Below, piece by piece: positions 24,804 to 34,879 of a stretch of 39,628 nt of DNA. Positions within the stretch are counted from its first letter, which is position 1; every line of letters starts with the position of its first letter. The notes under the pieces are model-generated. The model was not told where the DNA came from, did no database searches, and saw only the letters and a program-made list of their open reading frames with translations. Origin of the DNA: Candidatus Sericytochromatia bacterium (GTDB taxonomy: Bacteria; Cyanobacteriota; Sericytochromatia; S15B-MN24; UBA4093); NCBI GenBank assembly GCA_036676985.1, contig JAKFBU010000055.1, positions 1 through 39,628 on the forward strand, written 5' to 3'. The position numbers and the translations under genes were made by a program.

Positions 24804-25769
24804 CTAGCGCTTCTTGGCGATCGCCGCGCGCGCCGCGCGGGCGATGTCCGACCCCAAGAGGCCGTACTTCTTCATGAGGGCGTCGGCCGTGCCGGACTCC
24901 CCGTAGACGTCCTGGAGGCCCACCCGGACCATCGGCACCGGGTACTCCTCACCGAGCACCTCGGCACAAGCGCCGCCCAGGCCGCCGATGACGTTGTGCT
25001 CCTCGGCCGTGACGACCGCTCCGGTCTCCTTGGCGACGCGGACGAGCGTCTCCTTGTCGAGGGGCTTGATGGAGCTCATGTTCACGACCGCGGCCGAGAT
25101 GCCCTCGGCCTCGAGCTCCTGGGCCGCCAGGATGGCCTGGTAGACCATCACGCCGCAGGCGACGATGGCGACGTCCGTGCCCTCGGCGAGCACCTCGGCG
25201 CGGCCGATCTTGAACTCGACGCCGTTGGGACGGGGCAGGACGGGCACGGCGGGACGGCCGAGACGGATGTAGACCGGGCCCTCGTGCTCGGCGGCCGCCC
25301 GGATGATGGCCTCGGTCTCGGGGGCATCCGCGGGCACCAGCACCGTCATGTAGGGGATGACGCGGGTGATGGCGATGTCCTCGAGGATCTGGTGGGTCGC
25401 GCCGTCCTCGCCGAGCGTGATGCCCGCGTGGGTGGCCGCGATCTTCACGTTGAGGTTCATGTGGCCGACGGAGTTGCGGACCATCTCCCAGGCCTTGCCG
25501 GTGGCGAACATGGCGAAGCTGCTGGCGAAGGGCACCTTGCCCGCGAGCGCGAAGCCGCAGGCGGTGTCGATCAGGTTCTGCTCGGCGATGCCCATGTTGA
25601 AGAAGCGCTCGGGGTGCTGCTTCATGAAGAACTGGGTCATGGTCGAGCACGCGAGGTCCGCGTCCAGCACCACGATGTCCGAGCGCTCGGCGCCCAGCTT
25701 CGCGAGGGTCTCGCCGTAGGCGGTGCGCGTGGCGATCTTGTCCTTGGTATTGACGACGGGGGCGCCCAT
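24804..25769 (-). CDS. Transketolase, C-terminal (pyrimidine-binding) subunit
   Basis: [27 protein letters not shown] and [10 protein letters not shown]; start overlaps the upstream stop (TAATG). Confidence 0.95.
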
Positions 25770-26602
25770 TACATCAGCTCCTTGAGGGCGATCTCGGCCT
25801 CTTCCGGCGACGGCGCGGTGCCGTGCCACTTCACGACGTTCTCCATGAAGGAGACGCCCTTGCCCTTGACGGTGTTGGCGACGATGCAGGTCGGCTGGCC
25901 GATGAGCGGCGTCTGGGCCGCCGTCTTCAGGGCGCCGAGGATGGCCCCCATGTCGTGGCCGTCGATGACGATCACGTTCCAGCCGAAGGAGCGGAACTTG
26001 TCGCCGATGTCTCCGAGGGCCATGACGTCCTCGGTGCAGCCGTCGATCTGGAGCCGGTTGCGGTCGATGATGGCCGTCAGGTTGCCCGTCTTGTAGTGAG
26101 CGGCCGCCATGGCAGCCTCCCAGACTTCGCCTTCCTGGCACTCGCCGTCGCCCAAGAGCGCGTAGACCCGGCTCTCGCTGGCATCCAGGCGCAGGGCGAG
26201 GGCCATGCCGTGGGCGATGGCGAGGCCGTGGCCGAGAGAGCCCGTCGAGGCCTCGACGCCCGGCAGCTTGTGCATGTCGGGGTGGCCCTGCAGGCGGCTG
26301 TCGATGCGGCGCAGGCTCGAAAGCTCGCTCGGATCGAAGTAGCCCGCCTCGGCGAGCACGGCGTACAGGCCGGGAGCACCGTGGCCCTTGGAGAGCACGA
26401 AGCGATCGCGGCCCGCCCAGTTGGGCTGCTTGGGATCGTGGCGCATGTGGCCGAAGTAGAGGGCCGTGAGGAGGTCGGCGGCCGAGAGGCTGGTGCCGGG
26501 GTGGCCGCTCTTGCCGTCGCGGGTGCTCGTGATGATATGGCGGCGCACCGCTTTGGCGCGCTCAGCGAGATCGGCGTAAGACGCCGGAGATTGGGCGATC
26601 AT
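25769..26602 (-). CDS. Transketolase, N-terminal (TPP-binding) subunit
   Basis: GHPGTSLS, RDRFVLSKGH, LQGHP, STGSLGHG, GDGECQEG and KGKGVSFME. Confidence 0.95.
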   Translation of the reverse strand: MIAQSPASYADLAERAKAVRRHIITSTRDGKSGHPGTSLSAADLLTALYFGHMRHDPKQPNWAGRDRFVLSKGHGAPGLYAVLAEAGYFDPSELSSLRRIDSRLQGHPDMHKLPGVEASTGSLGHGLAIAHGMALALRLDASESRVYALLGDGECQEGEVWEAAMAAAHYKTGNLTAIIDRNRLQIDGCTEDVMALGDIGDKFRSFGWNVIVIDGHDMGAILGALKTAAQTPLIGQPTCIVANTVKGKGVSFMENVVKWHGTAPSPEEAEIALKELM

Positions 26603-26670
26603 TTGCTCCAATTTGCGCTCCTTGGGAATCGAGGGCAACCTATTAGCCGTCAACCTGCATCATATCACAA

Positions 26671-26754
26671 TCAAAGCGCCTCTTGAGACTGTTCCTTCCA
26701 ACCGCCGGATGGCGGTCGAAGGCTTCACATGCCTGGTCTCGAGAGGTGCTTTGA
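26671..26754. mobile_element. 84-nt palindromic element, copy A (MITE-like or structured RNA)
   Basis: 64/84 identical, ungapped, to 32979-33062; 19-bp terminal stem plus inner hairpin ACCGCC-GGAT-GGCGGT. Confidence 0.75.
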
Positions 26755-26833
26755 GCGCCTCTCGAGACTGTTTCCTCAAACCGCCGGATGGGGATCGGAG
26801 GCCTCGTCGGCCGGATCCAGAGCGGCCTCGTCG
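26750..26833. mobile_element. Degenerate tandem copy C of the 84-nt element, overlapping the DUF4127 3' end
   Basis: 26753-26805 matches copy A positions 4-56 at 44/53; similarity is weaker after that. Confidence 0.6.
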
Positions 26834-28305
26834 CCCGGCTGGCGCTCCACCACGCGGACGCCCACCTCGAAGAGGCGGTGCCACGGGAAGCGGGCCTCGA
26901 TGGTCGCGATCCGGATCCGGTGCACCAGCCGCGTCCACAGGGCCAGCATGCGCCCGGGCAGCTCCTGCTCCAGGGCGTCGATGGAGCGGCCCTTGGCCAA
27001 CTCCTCCTGCAGCTGCGGGCGCAGCTGGGACTGGTAGAGGATGTCGTCCGCGATCCGGTCGAGCATGTACTGGCGCTGGGCGGCCTCGTCGCGGGTCGCA
27101 GGATCGAGCCAGGCGCTCGCCTGGGCCACGACCGTGCCCAGGGTGTTGCCGGCCGTGTTCCACGCGGCGAACGCGCAGAGCCGCATGTGGTCCTTGAAGG
27201 CCCTAAAGAGCTCCGGGTCCCCGCCGTTGGCGTAGGCCACGTCCGCGAGCGCCGTGGGCATGAGCCCCTCGCTCAGGGTCCGCGCGAAGGGCCCGAGATC
27301 GCGGGGCGGGTGGTCCACCTTGTCGAGGTGGATCCGCAGGCACAGGTCGCCCTGGCCGGTGGAGGGCGTGTTCACCATGAGGAGCACGTCGGCCTCCTGC
27401 ATGCTGCCCACCACGCGGCCGCCCACGGCCTGGATCTGGCTTGCGACCGTGCGCTCGAGCGGCCGGTCCTCGTACATGGGCGTGATGGTCCCGCCGTAGG
27501 GCGTCGAGTAGCGCACGAAGAAGGCCGGGCTCTGGCGCTTCATCCGGTTCAGGTGTCGGCCGACGAGCACGCTCGCGACCTCGTCGGCGCCCGGGTAGAG
27601 GAGCACCCGGCTCGCGAGGTTGGCGGCGTTGACCTGCTCGACGAGCTTGCGCTGCTCCTTGACGTTGAGGCCGTAGCGGCTGGTGTCGTCCTGGGTCATG
27701 AGCAACAGGTCGAAGAGGTTGCGGCGCGTCCACTCCACCATCATCTGGTTGATCGCGAAGTTGCGCTCGCGCGTCTCCATGTAGTCCGAGAGGATCTCGA
27801 AGGGGATCTCCCCCTTGGCGTCGAGGGCCTTCTGGAGGTCGACGGCGTCCCCGTGCTGCTCGTACTTGTCCTGGTGGAACGAGTAGGTGTAGATGAGCTT
27901 GCCGTACTGGGCCCAGTACGGCTTCTCCTCCTCGACGGCGGCCTCCGCCGAGAGGCGCATGGTGACCGAGAAGCCGTAGATGGGCAGGCTCGGCCGGGCC
28001 TCCTTGATCTTCACCAGGCCCGCCAGGCGCTGCTGGATCGCCGCAAGGGGCGTGTCGCTCTGGCGGCTCGGGATGAGCCCGCCGTAGCCCAGGGTGTCCA
28101 CCGAGACGATGAGGGCCTCGGCCTCCGGGGCCCGCTCGGCGATCCACCGTAAAAGTCCCTCGCAGTCGGCGGGGCGCTCGAGGTTGCCCATCAGCTCCAC
28201 AGGGGGGCACTCGACCGGGACCGAGGCGATCGCCCCGATCTGGCGTGGCAGGTGGTACGTGACGGGACGATCGTCGAGGGGAACGAGCAACAGGCTTCCA
28301 GACAT
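26776..28305 (-). CDS. DUF4127 family protein
   Basis: LLVPLDDRP, SVDTLGYGGLIPSR, QDD, YPGADEV, ADVAYANGGD and AAWNTAGNTLG motifs. Confidence 0.9.
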   Translation of the reverse strand: MSGSLLLVPLDDRPVTYHLPRQIGAIASVPVECPPVELMGNLERPADCEGLLRWIAERAPEAEALIVSVDTLGYGGLIPSRQSDTPLAAIQQRLAGLVKIKEARPSLPIYGFSVTMRLSAEAAVEEEKPYWAQYGKLIYTYSFHQDKYEQHGDAVDLQKALDAKGEIPFEILSDYMETRERNFAINQMMVEWTRRNLFDLLLMTQDDTSRYGLNVKEQRKLVEQVNAANLASRVLLYPGADEVASVLVGRHLNRMKRQSPAFFVRYSTPYGGTITPMYEDRPLERTVASQIQAVGGRVVGSMQEADVLLMVNTPSTGQGDLCLRIHLDKVDHPPRDLGPFARTLSEGLMPTALADVAYANGGDPELFRAFKDHMRLCAFAAWNTAGNTLGTVVAQASAWLDPATRDEAAQRQYMLDRIADDILYQSQLRPQLQEELAKGRSIDALEQELPGRMLALWTRLVHRIRIATIEARFPWHRLFEVGVRVVERQPGDEAALDPADEASDPHPAV

Positions 28306-28380
28306 CAGCGGGCACTCCTCGGAAGGGGGATCCGATCCATTGTACGGGGATGACGGGGTTTTATTGGGCACAATCGACCG

Positions 28381-28409
28381 ATGACACCCGCTTCATAAAA
28401 CTTTATAAT
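28381..28409 (+). promoter_or_regulatory. Sigma70-type promoter of spoVS
   Basis: ATGACA-N17-TATAAT. Confidence 0.7.
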
Positions 28410-28539
28410 TCCCTCACAAGCGGCAGATCGCCGCAGTCGGCGGATCGCAGCCGGGTTCGGGCGGGATCGAACCCGCATGCGCCCGCCGGATGAACAGAGC
28501 CCGGACGGGTCCGGCTCTGCACATGAGGAGGGAACGTCG

Positions 28540-28830
28540 GTGATCACTAATGCAACCAAAACTGGTCCTACGCTACTCAAGGTGTCGTCCAAGTCCAACC
28601 CGGCGTCGGTCGCAGGGGCGATCGCTGGCATGATCCGCGAGACGGGTCGGTGCGAGGTCCAGGCCATCGGGGCCGGGGCCGTGAACCAGACCGTCAAGGC
28701 GATCGGCATCGCCCGCGGATACGTGGCGCCAGGCGGCATCGACCTGGTCGCGATCCCGGCCTTCCTCGACATCGAGGTGCAGGGCGAAGAACGCACGGCC
28801 ATCCGGTTCATCATCGAGCCTAGGACCTAG
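28540..28830 (+). CDS. spoVS: Stage V sporulation protein S family (Alba-like fold)
   Basis: LKVSSKSNPASVAGAIAGMIR..EVQAIGAGAVNQTVKAIGIARGY..EERTAIRFIIEPR; GTG after GAGGAGG. Confidence 0.95.
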   Translation: MITNATKTGPTLLKVSSKSNPASVAGAIAGMIRETGRCEVQAIGAGAVNQTVKAIGIARGYVAPGGIDLVAIPAFLDIEVQGEERTAIRFIIEPRT

Positions 28831-28831
28831 G

Positions 28832-29674
28832 CTAGTCCCAGTCTTGGCCGCACTCCGTCCGGACTCCCCACTGGAGCTTGCGCCGGAGGGCGGTGAAGAA
28901 GTCTTGCTCGGCGAGGCGAACGAGCTTCGCCGAGTAGGCGCTGCGCCGGAAGGTCATCTCGTCGCCCGTCCGTAACAGGCCCACCGTGTGGCCGTCGGCG
29001 GCGACGAGGGCCCCTTCCGCGCGGTCCATGACCACGATGCGCACCGTCTTCTGGTCCGAGACGACCAGGGGGCGGGCCGTCAGCATGTGGGGACAGATGG
29101 GCGTGAGCAGGAAGGCGGGCACGTCGGGGGCCATGATGGGGCCGCCCGCCGCCATGCTGTAGGCCGTCGAGCCCGTGGGCGTCGAGACGATGATGCCGTC
29201 CGCGCCGTAGGTCGCCACGTGGGAGTGGTCCGCGTAGAGGGCCATCTCCAGCATGCGGCCGGAGGCGCCCTTGAGGACCACGCCCTCGTTGAGCGCGAGG
29301 TCGGAGGCGACGAGCTCTCCGTCCCGGTAGAGCGCGACCTCGAGCAAGAGGCGGTCCTCGACCTGGTAGTCCCCGCCGAGCAGACGCTCGATGGCCACCG
29401 CCAGGTCCCCGTAGGAGACCTCCGCGAGGAAGCCCAGGGTCCCCAGGTCCACGCCCAGGATGGGCGTCTCGCGCTGAGCGACCATGCGCGCCGCCCGCAA
29501 GAAGGTGCCGTCCCCGCCGAGCACCACCACGGCGTCCACCGGCGGCAGGCTGGGATGGTCGCCGGAGACGACCACCGAGCGGCCGCCCAGGCTCTCGATC
29601 GTCTCCCGGACCTGGCCGACGAGCGCCTGGATCTGGGGCTTGGAGTCGTTGTAGACCACGCCGATCGGCTTCAT
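28832..29674 (-). CDS. nadK: NAD(+) kinase
   Basis: [17 protein letters not shown] and [21 protein letters not shown]; ATGA overlap with tlyA. Confidence 0.96.
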
Positions 29675-30471
29675 GCGGAGAGCTCCCGGTGCGCCCGCTC
29701 CACGGCCTCGGCGTAGCCCGGCGGCGCCGCCTCGGGCGGAACCCGGCGCCAGTAGGCAAGGAACTCGATGTTGCCCTCGGGCCCCTTGATGGGCGAGTGC
29801 GTGAGCCCCCACAGGTGATAGCCGAGCTCGCTGGCCGCCGCGTCCACCTCTTTGAGCACCCGCTCGTGGGTCTTGGCGTCGCGGACCACTCCGCCCTTGC
29901 CCACGTGCTCGCGCCCCGCCTCGAACTGCGGCTTGACGAGCGCCACCACGTCGCCCGTCGGCGCCAGCAATCGCGCGACGGCAGGCAGGACCTTGGCGAG
30001 CCCGATGAAGGAGACGTCGATGACGGCCAGATCCGGCGTCTCGCCCTCGAGCGACTCCAGGTGGCGGACGTTGGTGCGCTCCATGACCCGGACCCGGGGG
30101 TCCTGGCGCAGGGCCCAGGCGAGCTGGCCGTAGCCCACGTCCACCGCGTAGACGAAGCGGGCGCCGTTCCGCAAGAGCACGTCCGTGAAGCCCCCGGTGG
30201 AGGCGCCCACGTCCAAAGCGACCCGGCCCTCGACCGGGATGCCGAAGGCCTCGAGGGCCCGCTCGAGCTTGTGGCCGCCGCGGCTCACGTAGCTGGAGGC
30301 CGGCGCCTGGATGTCGATGGGCAGGGTGGGGTCGACGCCCATGCCGGCCTTGGTGGCGGGCTGCCCGCCCACCTTGACGAGCCCGGCCAGGATGGCGCGC
30401 TGGGCCTGCTCGCGCGAGCCGAAGTGGCCCAGGCTGACCAGCAAGGTATCCAGGCGCTCTTTCTTGGCCAT
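29671..30471 (-). CDS. tlyA: TlyA family rRNA 2'-O-methyltransferase
   Basis: S4 domain [39 protein letters not shown] and SPIKG..GNIEF. Confidence 0.96.
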
Positions 30472-30915
30472 CTAGATCACGGCGTTCAGGGCGTTGATCG
30501 CAAAGGCGACCGCCACGCCCAGGATGGCCCCACCGATGACCTCGCGCGGGGTGTGGCCCAACAGCTCCTTGAGGTGGCTCTCCTTGAAGGACAAGGAGTG
30601 TTGCAGGTCCTCGACGATCTTGTTGAGGACCCGCGCCTGGCGACCCGCGGCCTGGCGGACGCCCGCCGCGTCGTACATGACGATGAAGGCGAAGACCAGG
30701 CTCACGTCGAAGATCGGCGAGTGCACCCCCTCGAGGATGCCCACGGTGGTCGTCAGGCCCACGACGAGCGCCGTGTGCGAGCTCGGCATGCCGCCGGTGG
30801 TGACGAGCGTGCGGATATCGATCTTGCGGTTCTTGACCAGCACGGTGACGAACTTGATGAGCTGGGCGAGGGTCAGGCCGACCACACCCGCCACGAGGGC
30901 CTGGTTCTGGATCAA
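30472..30915 (-). CDS. Divergent PAP2 family protein (DUF212)
   Basis: AQLIK, TGGMPSSH, VMYDAAGVRQAAG and LKELLGHTPREV; TTG start overlapping the ispA stop. Confidence 0.92.
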   Translation of the reverse strand: MIQNQALVAGVVGLTLAQLIKFVTVLVKNRKIDIRTLVTTGGMPSSHTALVVGLTTTVGILEGVHSPIFDVSLVFAFIVMYDAAGVRQAAGRQARVLNKIVEDLQHSLSFKESHLKELLGHTPREVIGGAILGVAVAFAINALNAVI

Positions 30916-31808
30916 TGGGTACGCTCCGTGACGAACCGGGCGATCGCCCGGAGGGGGTCGGCGGCCGAGCCGAGCGGGACGAGGGCCTGCATGGCGATCG
31001 CCACCTGGCGATCGGCCTCGGCCCGCGCGGCCGCCATGCCGTAGAGGGCGGGGTAGGTCGCCTTGGAGACGGCCACGTCCTTGCCGGGGTTCTTGCCCAG
31101 GGCCTCGGCCGTGCCCGTCAGGTCCAAGAGGTCGTCGACGATCTGGAAGGCGAGGCCGAGGGCCTCGGCGTAGCGGGTCAGGGCGTCCATGGTGGCGGCG
31201 TCGGCCTCGGCCGCATGCGCCCCGAGGCGCGCGGCCACCCGCAGGAGCTGGCCCGTCTTGTGGCGGTGGATGAACTCGAGGGTGGCAGCGTCGATGGGCT
31301 TGCCCTCGCTCCGGATGTCCACCACCTGGCCCGCGACCATGCCGAGCGTCGCCTTCGCCAGATCGGCCAGGGCGAGCACCGTCCGCTCGTGGGAGGCATG
31401 CTTGGGCATGGCCTCGGCGAGCACCTCGAAGGCATAGGCCAAGAGGCCGTCTCCCGCCAAGAGGGCGAGGGCCTCGCCATAGACGACGTGGTTGGTCGGG
31501 CGGCCCCGGCGCAGGGTGTCGTCGTCCATGCAGGGCAGGTCGTCGTGGATCAGGCTCTGGGTGTGGATCAGCTCCAGGGCGCAGGCGGCGCCGACGGCCG
31601 CCTCGAGCGTGCCGCCCGCCGCCTCGCAGCTCGCGATGGTGAGGATCGGGCGCAGCCGCTTGCCGCCCGCGAGCACGCTGTAGGCCATGGACTCCCAGAG
31701 GGCGGCGGGCTCGCGCGTGGCGACGAGCTCCTCGAGCGTACGCTGGACGCGGGCGTTGCGCGCCTCCCAGTAGGCGTCGAGGGAAAAGGGTTTGAGGGCC
31801 GGGTCCAC
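30912..31808 (-). CDS. ispA: Polyprenyl (farnesyl/geranylgeranyl) diphosphate synthase
   Basis: GGKRLRP, SLIHDDLPCMDDDTLRRG (FARM), GQVVD, HKTG and FQIVDDLLD (SARM). Confidence 0.95.
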   Translation of the reverse strand: MDPALKPFSLDAYWEARNARVQRTLEELVATREPAALWESMAYSVLAGGKRLRPILTIASCEAAGGTLEAAVGAACALELIHTQSLIHDDLPCMDDDTLRRGRPTNHVVYGEALALLAGDGLLAYAFEVLAEAMPKHASHERTVLALADLAKATLGMVAGQVVDIRSEGKPIDAATLEFIHRHKTGQLLRVAARLGAHAAEADAATMDALTRYAEALGLAFQIVDDLLDLTGTAEALGKNPGKDVAVSKATYPALYGMAAARAEADRQVAIAMQALVPLGSAADPLRAIARFVTERTH

Positions 31809-31849
31809 CGTGGTTCGTCCTTTGCTTGCGGCGCGGGCAGGGCGGCCTC

Positions 31850-31900
31850 ATTATACCCCACGCCCCGGCGTCTCGGGGGCGGACGGCGGCATGGTAGAAT
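31850..31900. promoter_or_regulatory. Divergent -10 elements for ispA (minus) and the beta-barrel gene (plus)
   Basis: TATAAT on minus at 31850-31855; extended TGGTAGAAT on plus at 31892-31900. Confidence 0.5.
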
Positions 31901-31959
31901 CCCTTAACTCTTGGTTGCTAAGGGTTGTCGCTTCCCCCGTTCGATTAGAGGAAACAGCC

Positions 31960-32907
31960 GTGAAACAGCACCACCTCCTGTCCGCGAGCCTGGTGGCCCT
32001 GAGCGTCGTCATCGCCGGCCCGGCACTCGCCCAGATGAAGACCTCGAACCCCAAGCCCGCCGCCACGCCCACCCCCGCGCCCGGCACGGCCGCGGCCACG
32101 CCCAGCGTGACGCCCGCCCCCATGCGCACCACCGACCGGGTGGTCGAGCAGGAAGAGCGCGCGCCCATCGGCCTCAAGGTCTTCGGCGCCTACGACTTCA
32201 TGGGCAGCGTTTCCAACGGCGGCTTCGTGCCAGCGACCACCCAGGCCCCCGGCGTCACCGCCCCGGCCCTCGCCCAGGCCTCGCCCTCGGTGGGTGCTTC
32301 GGGCTACGCCTTCGGCGCCGAGTACGAGCTGCCGGTCATCGCCGTTGGCGCCAAGTACCAGGCCTTCGGCTTCGGCTCGCCCATCACGGCCGCCATCAAC
32401 AACCCGCCCACGGGCGTCACCCAGACCACCGCACCCAACTTCGACGTCTTCCTGCCCCAGAACTACTGGGAGCTCTACGGCAAGCTCGGTCCCCTCAAGG
32501 TCGGCTACCGCAACGAGAACTATGCCGGGACGGGCTTCGGCGGCAGCTACGGCAACCTGATGGGCGGCCTCCAGTTCGGCTTCGGCATCGACCCCATCAG
32601 CCTCAACTTCGGCGCCATGGGCGGCTACAACCTGTCCAAGCCCTCGACCCTGCCCGCCAACGTCACGCACATGCCCGTCGAGGGCGACGTGAACCTCGCG
32701 GTGGACTTCGGCCTCCTCAAGGCCAAGGTCGGCTACAAGGCCCTGGCCGTCGCCAACGCGGACGCGGCCACGCTCATGACCGCCCTCACCAACCCGGCGT
32801 CGTTGGCGGCACCCGGCGGCGCCACCCAGGCGCAGCTCGACGCCCTCTACGCGACCCGCTTCGGCCTCTACACCGGGCCGTACCTCGGCCTCGCGGTCGG
32901 CTTCTAG
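31960..32907 (+). CDS. Putative outer-membrane beta-barrel protein
   Basis: GTG after GAGG; signal peptide ALA-Q, Pro/Thr/Ala linker, alternating beta-strands, C-terminal GPYLGLAVGF beta-signal. Confidence 0.75.
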   Translation: MKQHHLLSASLVALSVVIAGPALAQMKTSNPKPAATPTPAPGTAAATPSVTPAPMRTTDRVVEQEERAPIGLKVFGAYDFMGSVSNGGFVPATTQAPGVTAPALAQASPSVGASGYAFGAEYELPVIAVGAKYQAFGFGSPITAAINNPPTGVTQTTAPNFDVFLPQNYWELYGKLGPLKVGYRNENYAGTGFGGSYGNLMGGLQFGFGIDPISLNFGAMGGYNLSKPSTLPANVTHMPVEGDVNLAVDFGLLKAKVGYKALAVANADAATLMTALTNPASLAAPGGATQAQLDALYATRFGLYTGPYLGLAVGF

Positions 32908-32918
32908 GCCCATTCCCG

Positions 32919-32954
32919 ACCGGGGGCTCCCCTGGGGGGCCCCCGGTTTCTTTC
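32919..32954 (+). terminator. Intrinsic terminator after the beta-barrel gene
   Basis: ACCGGGGGCTCCCC-TG-GGGGGCCCCCGGT stem then TTTCTTTC. Confidence 0.75.
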
Positions 32955-32974
32955 CTAACCATTAGGAGGCAACC

Positions 32975-34879
32975 ATGCTCAGAGCGCCTGACAAAACTGT
33001 TCCTTCGAGCCGCCGGAAGGCGGCCCATGACAACACATGCCTGGTTTTGTCAGGTGCTCTGATGCGCCTTGCGACCTGCGGCCTCGTCGCCATGACGGTC
33101 CTCGTCGCCGCGCCGTCCGCGCTGGCCTTCACGCCGGTCAGCGAGCTCAAGGACGTCAGCCCCGATCACTGGGCCTACAACGCCATCAAGGCCCTGGTCG
33201 AGAAGTACCAGGTCATGGAGGGGTTCCCGGACAACACCTTCCGCGGCGCGCGCACCATCTCCCGCTACGAGGCCGCCGCGGCCCTCGCCAAGGTCATGGC
33301 CCGGGTCGAGGAGATGGTGGCCGCCGCGACCGGCGAGACGCCGCAGCCGACCCGCATCCAGCCGAGCGTCAGCCCCGACGACCTGCGCACCATCGCACGC
33401 CTCCAGCAGGAGTTCAAGGACGAGCTGACGGGCCTCAAGGCCCGGGTCGACACCCAGGATGCCCGCCTCTCGGCCCTCGAGAAGCGCATCCGGCTCGGCG
33501 GCTCCCTGGACGCCCTCCTGCGCACCTACACGGCCCAGCCCGTCAACCAGGCCAACGAGCGCGAGGACCTGCGCATCGCGACCAACCTCACGCTCGACGC
33601 CAACGTGAGCCCCGAGCTGAGCTACCGCGGACAGCTCTCCGTCTTCAACAGCGGCGCGCACCGCTTCGCGAACGGGCACCTGTCGACCGAGGGCGGTCGA
33701 CCCGAGTTCGATGCCCCGGGCGACGTCGGCACGCCCCTCTACGTGCGGCGCTCCTACTTCTCGTGGACGCCCTCGGGCCTCGGCGTGCACGTGGGCATGA
33801 TGACCTTCTCGGACACCCTGCGCATCGGCTCGACCCTGCGCAACGAGTTCCGCACCGGCCCCGTCTGGCCCCATGCCGAGGGGGGCTACGGCTTCGTGGG
33901 CACCCCGCCGCTGCAGCCGCCCGCCCAGCCCAGCACCACCGAGACGGGCAACCTCGTGCTCGCTCCGGCCTCGCCGACCGCCCGCAGCCTGCCCACCATG
34001 CCGGGCCGGGTCCGCTGGAACCCGGGCGTCAACGTCGCCGAGGACCTCCTGGACCCCAACTCGGTCTGGGCCGTCAACACGGGCGCGGCTCCGAGTGCCG
34101 TGGTCAACGGCTTTTTGGGACCCGTGGAGCTCGGCGTCGGCCTCAACTACGGCACGCCGGGCGCTTCGAGCGAGCTGGCCCTCACCGACCAGCCGCGCAC
34201 CTTCCCCTTGATCAGCGAGTTCTACCGGGGCTACGCCCTCGGCAAGGTCGGCCTGGACCTGGGCATCGTGCGCTGGGGCGCCTACCTGCGCTCCGACTCC
34301 TCGGCCCTGCGCAGCGGGACGGGCCTCCTGAGCTCCGGGCGGGGCTACGGCACCACCCTGGACGTCGGTTCGGACGCCCTGGGCCTGAGCCTCGGCCATG
34401 CCGAGTTCATGCGCCGCGACTACGACCCCAACTACTACGCCGAGACCTCCGGCTTCGTGGTGAGCAACAGCCTGTTCGGCACGGGCATCGGGATCGGCAT
34501 CGGCGCCAAGGTCGGCAACTCGCCGGGGGCGGACTTCGCGGGCCTCATCCCGGTCTTGGCCTACGACTGGACGTCCACCGGCGCCTACGTGAAGCTGCCG
34601 GGCTTCTCGGTCATCCCCTCCTTGACGCTGGCCGCGCAGACCTCCGGGCGAGACTTGCTGACGGCGGACTACGGCTCGGGCCTCTCGGTGATCGCCGAGC
34701 TGCAGATCTCGCCGAGCCTGCCGTCGTTGCTCATCGAGTACGACATGGGCCGCTTCTACGGCAGCCCGAGCACGCCCGCGCCGAGCGGCCAGACGCCCGC
34801 CACGGCCAACCAGCTCATCGGCGGGGCCAACTACCCCACCCACGAGCAGCTCGTCATCGGGACGACCGTTCAGTTCTAG
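32975..34879 (+). CDS. SLH-domain outer-membrane porin (cyanobacterial SomA / SlpA-like architecture)
   Basis: AGGAGG SD; LKDVSPDHWAYNAIKALVEKY..GFPDNTFRG.RTISRYEAAA SLH domain; coiled coil LQQEFKDEL; beta-rich C-terminus ending in F. Confidence 0.88.
   Translation: MLRAPDKTVPSSRRKAAHDNTCLVLSGALMRLATCGLVAMTVLVAAPSALAFTPVSELKDVSPDHWAYNAIKALVEKYQVMEGFPDNTFRGARTISRYEAAAALAKVMARVEEMVAAATGETPQPTRIQPSVSPDDLRTIARLQQEFKDELTGLKARVDTQDARLSALEKRIRLGGSLDALLRTYTAQPVNQANEREDLRIATNLTLDANVSPELSYRGQLSVFNSGAHRFANGHLSTEGGRPEFDAPGDVGTPLYVRRSYFSWTPSGLGVHVGMMTFSDTLRIGSTLRNEFRTGPVWPHAEGGYGFVGTPPLQPPAQPSTTETGNLVLAPASPTARSLPTMPGRVRWNPGVNVAEDLLDPNSVWAVNTGAAPSAVVNGFLGPVELGVGLNYGTPGASSELALTDQPRTFPLISEFYRGYALGKVGLDLGIVRWGAYLRSDSSALRSGTGLLSSGRGYGTTLDVGSDALGLSLGHAEFMRRDYDPNYYAETSGFVVSNSLFGTGIGIGIGAKVGNSPGADFAGLIPVLAYDWTSTGAYVKLPGFSVIPSLTLAAQTSGRDLLTADYGSGLSVIAELQISPSLPSLLIEYDMGRFYGSPSTPAPSGQTPATANQLIGGANYPTHEQLVIGTTVQF
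32979..33062. mobile_element. 84-nt palindromic element, copy B, in frame within the porin signal peptide
   Basis: TCAGAGCGCCTGACAAAAC...GTTTTGTCAGGTGCTCTGA; same length and conserved loops as copy A. Confidence 0.75.

Follow-up and report, generated by a model that had tools for sequence, protein, structure and literature searches.

The 39,628-nucleotide (nt) stretch of DNA analysed here (the window) is contig C55 of a draft genome of Candidatus Sericytochromatia bacterium (G000; 4.68 Mb, 67% G+C, 79 contigs). It carries two full copies and one partial copy of a short palindromic element that recurs throughout this genome and in several of its relatives. Small palindromic mobile repeats are already known as a kind, and this newly found family is one of them rather than a novel class of regulatory RNA. 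On balance, the elements are probably a lineage-restricted family of non-autonomous mobile repeats, similar to REPINs (hairpin-forming doublets of repetitive extragenic palindromic, REP, sequences) or to miniature inverted-repeat transposable elements (MITEs), in which folding of one strand is under selection. No paper on repeats of this lineage was found in a full-text literature search combining Sericytochromatia and repeat.

A first-pass annotation, made from the letters of the window alone, had described two ungapped 84-nt copies (copy A, 26671-26754, and copy B, 32979-33062) as 64/84 identical, and alignment confirmed this. The six covarying pairs it listed are all present (4-81, A-T/G-C; 12-73, C-G/G-C; 13-72, T-A/A-T; 15-70, G-C/A-T; 17-68, G-C/A-T; 31-46, A-T/G-C), the G-T at 8-77 is kept in both copies and, as claimed, ACTGTTCCTTC and CACATGCCTGGT are invariant. 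The observation of two covarying copies is thus confirmed, and it is stronger than that annotation knew. Membership in a large interspersed family, the partial tandem copy directly 3' of copy A and the position of copy B inside the 5' end of a coding region had all been missed.

It is clear that the fold stability of copies A and B is far beyond chance. Their folding energies are -49 kcal/mol (z -7.4) and -48 kcal/mol (z -7.3), respectively, while dinucleotide shuffles average about -25 kcal/mol and 0 of 200 was as stable. Folded as RNA, each copy forms a 20-bp terminal stem around a GCCGCC-GNNA-GGCGGC hairpin, with two junction strands left unpaired. Folding of the reverse strands is slightly poorer (z -6.3 and -6.2). 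The partial copy has the left arm, the junction loop and a degenerate inner hairpin, and is without the right arm.

Iterated nhmmer searches of G000 revealed the partial copy and 39 full copies, distributed over both strands of many contigs. A covariance model (R1) was built from the 39 full copies, as the first-pass annotation had proposed for a genome scan, and gave 43 matches in G000; two of these are reverse-strand echoes, leaving 41 distinct loci. The comparison set consisted of 47 genomes of the class, ten from the family to which G000 belongs (G000 to G009, with G001 a congener of G000) and 37 from six other families. At E ≤ 1e-6 the model matched 40 times in G000, 23 in G001, 61 in G004, 39 in G007, eight in G005 and four in G008; these are numbers of matches rather than exact copy numbers, and several assemblies are incomplete. 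There were no matches at this threshold in the other four genomes of the family (G002, G003, G006 and G009) or in the 37 genomes of the six other families. The element-positive genomes fall in three genera (g1, g2 and g4).

Outside this set, 185,579 species were scanned with an exact pattern. Of the 82 stretches found, those that are true copies by nhmmer occur only in metagenome-assembled genomes (MAGs) titled Candidatus Sericytochromatia bacterium or 'Stenomitos sp.'. No blastn match to the element was found in plasmid and phage collections. Comparison with Rfam 15, also proposed in the first-pass annotation, gave no match to a described family at the gathering threshold across the whole window.

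The element is about 77-85 nt long. In the Y-shaped fold of its + strand, a terminal stem of 17-20 bp encloses a GC hairpin of 6 bp, with CUGUUCC as the junction loop on the 5' side and ACAUGCCUGG as the junction on the 3' side. Among the 39 full copies of G000, 90.3% of stem cells are in standard pairs and 15 of 27 pairs have changed on both sides. None of 500 shuffles reached the observed value for any of five measures, and when the partner was slid by 1-3 columns only 34-44% of cells were paired. Alignment of 103 copies from six genomes and three genera increased the number of pairs with double changes to 20 of 27 (16/18 in the outer stem and 4/6 in the inner hairpin), with 91.5% of stem cells paired, 0/500 shuffles reaching the observed values and slid controls at 33-47%. 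RNAalifold independently recovers both the outer stem and the inner hairpin. The covariation first seen in two copies therefore holds in both larger alignments, although the copies are related to one another and the shuffle tests overstate its significance.

Identical alternative pairs recur in both genus-level groups, g1 and g4. Pair 10-81 is CG in 40 copies and UA in five in g1, and UA in 26 and CG in 11 in g4. Pair 13-78 is AU (31), GC (10) or CG (7) in g1 and AU (30), GC (4) or CG (2) in g4, while pair 16-75 is AU (28), GU (13) or GC (7) in g1 and AU (30), GU (6) or GC (5) in g4. A G.U wobble at columns 9-82 is retained in 90 of 102 copies, and mismatches of the G.U type (86) exceed those of the A.C type (29). 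This excess, together with the kept wobble, shows that the + strand is the one whose fold is preserved.

The junction loops and the inner GC hairpin are the most conserved parts of the element. Column identity is 0.97 in both the CUGUUCC junction loop and the inner stem and 0.92 in the 3' junction next to the stem, falling to 0.85-0.87 in the stem arms and 0.42 in the inner loop. Selection on structure plus loop sequence, which the first-pass annotation had proposed from two copies, is upheld by stems that covary in three genera, by the wobble and by loops and an inner hairpin better conserved than the arms. Complementarity ends at columns 4/83 (3/84 in G000 only) and is at chance level further out, so the palindrome ends there; depending on the position, 83-92 of 102 copies conform to the ends GAG...CTC. 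The core is genus-specific: copies of g1 have a GNNA tetraloop and GACACAT, and those of g4 and g2 mostly have GCCGCC-CAC-GGCGGC (a three-base loop) and CGTAACAT.

Insertion sites turn over rapidly between the two congeners. The site of copy B is empty in G001, which has AACCATGTTCATGCGCC where G000 has AACCATGCTC, 81 nt and ATGCGCC. Among G001 copies with both flanks located in G000, 19 of 20 sites are without the element. Fourteen G000 copies were examined against G001; four lie at contig ends or gaps of the G001 assembly and nine of the remaining ten sites are empty. With the shared locus counted once, only one of 29 sites is common to the two genomes (flank identities about 77-96%). This is the locus of copy A, where G001 has one orthologous copy and G000 has one and a half, both of which align to it. 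Empty sites at orthologous loci, which the first-pass annotation had suggested looking for, are thus the rule between G000 and G001 (28/29 sites differ), and one of three sites differs between G007 and G004. Gain is the simpler reading of the contrast between G000 and G001.

In one intergenic region (C25 of G000, 29735 and 29926-30004; L199 of G001), the congeners have copies at differing positions about 190 nt apart, which suggests independent insertions. Two same-orientation copies 33 nt apart are present in G004 (C53, 17550-17751; L192), and the G007 counterpart (L156) has one. A second G004 locus (L180, on C40) has two copies about 55 nt apart. These tandem pairs resemble tandem arrangements of REPINs or bacterial interspersed mosaic elements (BIMEs).

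The flanks of the element are T-W-A-rich on both sides, with left triplets mainly TTA, TAA, CTA or TCA and right triplets TTA or TAA, and in G000 many element ends abut or supply a stop codon. A blind scan of G000 (all offsets, lengths 2-8) found no consistent target duplication. Among 104 copies, with the flanks of other copies as the control for chance, 17 have direct 3-mers at their flanks (7.1 expected) and 14 have direct 4-mers (4.3 expected), in most cases TTAG or TAAG. This excess stems from the relatives, as direct 3-mers in G000 are at chance level (2/39, 2.0 expected). Inverted flanking triplets are in excess in G000 (8, 1.7 expected). If the right flank were the left target triplet copied in inverted form, this excess and two clean G000 cases would be accounted for; the idea fails in the other genomes (2/65) and was not adopted.

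Eight filled/empty pairs are best resolved, the others being too diverged to read. The extra DNA in these eight is 73, 77, 77, 80, 81, 81, 82 and 83 nt, and junction repeats are 0-3 nt, or 3-4 nt and imperfect; there is one 3-nt direct repeat and one possible TAAG, while the rest have none or an imperfect one. In genus g4, a composite of about 135 nt, made up of the element and the C-run and G-run that flank it, occurs in at least six copies. The two flanking sequences are CCCCCGCCCCCCGGTGGGGCGGGG and GGGGTGGGGGGAT (L177, L184, L186, L191 and L194 in G004 and L167 in G007, positions about 575-715), and its copies are 77-95% identical over 117-143 aligned nt.

MITEs of the 'Tourist' type, derived from IS5/PIF-Harbinger insertion sequences (ISs), have GAG ends and TWA or TNA target duplications. 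An ordinary MITE from such a DDE-type IS is a possible, if rather unlikely, explanation of the element. Its 18- to 20-bp GAG-starting arms would be terminal inverted repeats used by a transposase in trans for cut-and-paste movement into T-N-A or T-W-A-G targets, the 3- to 4-bp duplications would mostly have eroded and the parent IS would have been lost or left unassembled. The GAG...CTC ends, the TTA/TAA-type flanking triplets, the modest excess of direct 3-mers and 4-mers with perfect TTAG, TAAG or TAA repeats around some copies, and the presence/absence polymorphism are all as expected on this explanation. So is the fact that 17-20 complementary end bases surround a core too short for a transposase, and ends abutting stop codons would be expected of a TA-seeking element in a G+C-rich genome. 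Relatives also hold IS5-type elements with GAG ends, such as one in G007 in which CTA directly precedes the end GAGGCTGTACGG.

However, the arms of the element covary and are less conserved than its interior, the reverse of what is expected for ends bound by a transposase. The best-resolved filled/empty pairs mostly have no duplication or an imperfect one, the inserted length varies, and in G000 it is inverted rather than direct triplets that are in excess. No IS with these ends was found, nor was any solo arm or half element in G000, although the assemblies are drafts and an unassembled IS is possible. The suggestion in the first-pass annotation of IS5-family (IS1031-type) ends (GAG ends, TNA flanks) gains weak support from the T-W-A-rich flanks and the direct 3-mers; most of the clean filled/empty pairs are without a direct duplication. 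Of the domesticated MITE that it offered as a fallback, the MITE-like part is nearer the truth and domestication is not supported.

Among transposase families, PF01609 (IS4/IS5 DDE) has two matches in G000, 11 in G001, three in G007, one in G005 and one, of 24 bits, in G004. PF13586 (IS5 type) was found only in G001 and G007, and PF13358 (IS630 type) only in G000, G001 and G002, of the ten genomes of the family. PF01797 (Y1/RAYT) was found only in G001 (41.7 bits) of five genomes, being absent from G000, G004 and G007, and no element copy lies in its 3.2-kb locus, within about 1.5 kb of the match. No distribution of these four families follows that of the element; G004 is richest in the element (61-64 copies) yet has only the single weak PF01609 match and neither PF13586 nor PF13358. 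The DDE and Y1 transposase loci of G000, G001, G004, G005 and G007 have at most 10 nt in common with the element arms.

In G000, solo arms or half elements bracketing a transposase were at chance level only (best E 0.008). The ends of its IS630-type elements are not definable because the three copies are only about 70% alike. For the four families, all of whose matches are on other contigs, the earlier statement that the window has no transposase is correct, and the co-occurring transposase with matching ends that it had suggested looking for was not found among the Y1/RAYT, IS5- and IS630-type families searched. A 1.37-kb IS5-type IS in G007 (C11; L149, 636-2009) has perfect ends, CTA directly preceding GAGGCTGTACGGAAAG, and only the GAG start is common to it and the element.

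Deep divergence between copies within a genome, pairing and loops under purifying selection, and fast-changing insertion sites together point to selfish elements selected for propagation competence, as the preferred reading of mobile repeats selected for one-strand folding holds. An argument of this kind has been made for REPINs (PMC3116915) and for bcr1 (PMC3184786). Selection would act on element lineages over many rounds of copying and not on host function at each locus. Only copies with a foldable + strand that presents the conserved loops would be propagated, presumably by an enzyme supplied in trans that reads structure and loop sequence rather than terminal sequence. The interior is conserved, the ends covary and are variable, and no regular duplication accompanies the element, all of which suggests recognition of a folded strand. 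New copies would favour sites that contain T-W-A. At 67% G+C, such sites are mostly stop codons and spacers, and element ends would therefore often abut or supply a stop. Effects on neighbouring genes would be incidental; these include a 27-residue N-terminal extension of an SLH-domain protein, a DUF4127 protein that gains a new C-terminus and stop, and transcripts containing long double-stranded stems.

A bolder proposal, which we consider unlikely, is that the family represents a new, structure-guided class of mobile DNA (or an RNA-mediated one). Its mechanism would read the folded single strand, with its three-way junction, conserved loops and inner GC hairpin, and cut at the base of a stem of arbitrary sequence, without a Y1/RAYT or a recognisable IS5-, IS4- or IS630-type transposase. 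Such a mechanism would explain why the ends covary, why the inserted length varies, why there is no regular target duplication and why the 135-nt version multiplies too.

Several results weigh against a selfish family of mobile repeats. No mobilising enzyme was found among the four transposase families searched, and the weak but real excess of direct repeats fits an ordinary DDE-type MITE with eroded target duplications. An absent copy in one genome can also reflect loss, and genome pairs do not separate gain from loss. Turnover is not uniformly high, since in genus g4 two of the three sites examined are common to G007 and G004, one of them as a tandem duplicate in G004, the third site being the empty one. 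In tandem gene contexts, sense orientation is somewhat favoured (44 sense and 25 antisense among the 103 aligned copies), and sense copies have a G.U:A.C ratio of 41:10, antisense copies one of 20:12, a trend without reversal. The data also have limits: every genome is a draft, MAG-like assembly from which repeated IS copies may be missing, one locus was entered twice in the 103-row alignment (L038 is L061), and the gene calls behind the orientation counts come from a crude open reading frame (ORF) heuristic based on GC3 (G+C content at third codon positions), which does give sensible genes in the window.

The sense preference and the stronger G.U bias of sense copies make some RNA-level selection possible. 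The fullest form of this explanation, which appears quite unlikely, is a structured RNA module used by the host (a hairpin for mRNA stabilisation or processing, a terminator-like element or a binding site for a protein) that spread as a repeat and is kept by selection on transcripts. Covariation through G.U intermediates, G.U mismatches at threefold the A.C type and the fixed wobble would all follow from it, and the only copy shared by the congeners, at the locus of copy A, keeps its pairing despite a stem sequence unlike the consensus. According to PMC3184786, a good many repeats of this type are transcribed, and their RNA fold may influence the expression of genes. A conserved function at particular loci, however, does not accord with a single shared site in 29. 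Neighbouring genes are unrelated (around copies A and B they are those for a DUF4127 protein and a transketolase subunit, an unassigned ORF and an SLH-protein gene), no T-run follows the stem, and no Rfam family matches.

In addition, 25 of 69 copies in tandem contexts are antisense, copy A being antisense to both its neighbours, and the G.U excess persists in antisense copies. The other aligned copies lie in divergent (19) or convergent (12) contexts or lack a call (3), and in G000 alone there are 13 sense, 13 antisense, 11 divergent and two convergent. No replication-strand signal was found in G000 (local GC skew 21/39; majority gene strand 23/39). The turnover of sites and the existence of antisense copies make a primary host RNA function unlikely; some selection on transcripts may operate. 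The dedicated structured RNA or ligand sensor at two loci envisaged by the first-pass annotation is accordingly not supported: the element is multi-copy and interspersed, and its sites, neighbours and orientation vary.

Integron attC sites are folded single-stranded DNA (ssDNA) substrates of a tyrosine recombinase, with core sites of the pattern RYYYAAC / GTTRRRY. The consensus arms of the element, GCCTAAC ... GTTAGGT, fit this pattern, its stem conserves structure over sequence and one strand is favoured. An attC-like site, or the structured site of another recombinase, is nevertheless a very improbable identity for the element. Pair 13-78, where AAC would begin and GTT would end, is A-U in only 64 of 102 copies and not in copies A and B. 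The stem is continuous over 17-20 bp, including 5 bp beyond the would-be core sites, with neither an unpaired central spacer nor conserved extrahelical bases. Instead of forming cassette arrays, the copies occur one by one on more than 20 contigs and in either orientation (the integron integrase gene, intI, was not searched for). The integron attC reading was rejected on the unkept core pair, the continuous stem and the lack of cassette arrays.

The mobile-repeat family as preferred here has counterparts in other bacteria, none of which matches it fully. Correia elements (Correia/NEMIS) of Neisseria have fixed 26-bp ends and a TA duplication, and Rickettsia palindromic elements (RPEs) are mostly intragenic. 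Like both, the element would form long stems if transcribed and lies next to or inside genes. Copy B resembles an RPE in being in frame within a coding region, to which it adds 27 residues; unlike RPEs, it is the only one of the 39 full G000 copies clearly located in a coding frame. Enterobacterial ERIC sequences, which like bcr1 are MITE-like palindromic repeats that are transcribed, share with the element their small size, their palindromic and interspersed nature, the lack of conserved positions between close relatives and a fold kept by compensatory changes.

The same likenesses extend to bcr1 of the Bacillus cereus group, described by Delihas (PMC3184786) as a mobile hairpin repeat of about 155 bp that forms a cruciform with two stem-loops, shows compensatory base-pair changes and has 5-bp direct repeats at each copy. 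Compared with bcr1 as described there, the element has one long stem with a three-way junction and no consistent duplication. REPINs are REP doublets that form hairpins and are mobilised by RAYT transposases; compensatory changes across the hairpin are common, and selection has been argued to act on the repeat as the replicating unit (Bertels & Rainey 2011, PMC3116915). On that description, the element is like REPINs in being a short, non-autonomous, interspersed inverted repeat with a hairpin in ssDNA or mRNA and compensatory changes, in its extragenic location, in differing strongly between related strains and in its occasional tandem clusters. It differs in that no Y1/RAYT gene was found in G000, G004 or G007 despite 39-61 matches in each. 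Its conserved part is an asymmetric 45-nt core with a GC hairpin, whereas REPINs conserve two ends. The arms are not REP palindromes and are without the 5' GTAG motif.

For most families of small palindromic repeats in bacteria, neither the mobilising enzyme nor the level of selection is known. The present family gives an unusually clean signal (deep stem covariation, fixed loops and fast site turnover) in an uncultured and little-studied lineage. A new mobilising enzyme would be an entry point to new transposition chemistry and a structure-guided mobile class, if true, would lie in a sister lineage of Cyanobacteria; if the element is an ordinary MITE, the outcome is routine annotation. In either case, the covariance model flags about 40 places per genome that are prone to gene-caller error, such as the SLH-protein N-terminus, the DUF4127 stop and spurious ORF extensions, and element sites could serve as strain-level markers.

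Within the window, the copies and the genes beside them are arranged as in Table 1.

Table 1. Element copies, their parts and neighbouring genes in the window
Feature	Position	Strand	Evidence or remark
Transketolase N-terminal subunit gene	25769-26653	-	Pfam PF00456, E 1.1e-54
Copy A, full element	26670-26754	+	R1 93.3 bits, E 5e-23
Copy A, 5' stem arm	26672-26689	+	
Copy A, 5' junction loop	26690-26700	+	
Copy A, inner GC hairpin	26701-26716	+	
Copy A, 3' junction	26717-26735	+	
Copy A, 3' stem arm	26736-26753	+	
5'-partial tandem copy	26752-26806	+	model positions about 2-55; nhmmer 26.9 bits, E 1.4e-5
DUF4127 gene	26776-28371	-	Pfam PF13552, E 3e-135; domain ends at residue 505 of 531
SLH-domain protein gene	32975-34879	+	Pfam SLH PF00395, E 1.3e-9; GC3 0.95
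Copy B, full element	32978-33062	+	R1 98.2 bits, E 2e-24
Copy B, 5' stem arm	32980-32997	+	
Segment of 81 nt without counterpart at the orthologous site of the congener	32981-33061	+	in frame; 27 codons after codon 2 of the SLH gene
Copy B, 5' junction loop	32998-33008	+	
Copy B, inner GC hairpin	33009-33024	+	
Copy B, 3' junction	33025-33043	+	
Copy B, 3' stem arm	33044-33061	+	

Copy A lies between the DUF4127 stop and the transketolase start. The partial copy overlaps the 3' end of the DUF4127 gene, whose stop codon (26776-26778, - strand) is inside it. The last ten or so codons of the DUF4127 protein, together with the stop, are supplied by the partial copy; the corresponding locus of the congener contains just one copy, which is complete.

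The SLH gene has a strong AGGAGG 6 nt upstream of its ATG (32975), and a second in-frame ATG (33062) starts a signal peptide. Copy B adds 27 residues (RAPDKTVPSSRRKAAHDNTCLVLSGAL) between Met-Leu and this signal peptide, so that the N-terminus reads MLRAPDKTVPSSRRKAAHDNTCLVLSGALMRLATCGLV... in G000 and MFMRLATLGLV... in G001. The 3' arm of copy B contains AGGTG 5 nt upstream of the second ATG, yet this is buried in the stem.

The three-motif pattern used in the scan also gives isolated matches (spacing about 52 nt) in numerous genomes of Mesorhizobium, Bradyrhizobium, Methylobacterium and other alphaproteobacteria (L051, L055, L065, L082, L099, L111, L127 and others), as well as in other groups. 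These were rejected as members of the family, not being copies by nhmmer, and may represent a conserved gene segment. Below the Rfam gathering thresholds (E ≤ 10), the region of copy A resembles Scr4115 (21.5 bits; cut-off 58) and Rothia-sucC (17.2 bits; cut-off 64.5). The latter resemblance, at 26693-26749 on the - strand, arises through the strings ACCUC..AGACCAG and GAAGGA and is probably due to chance.

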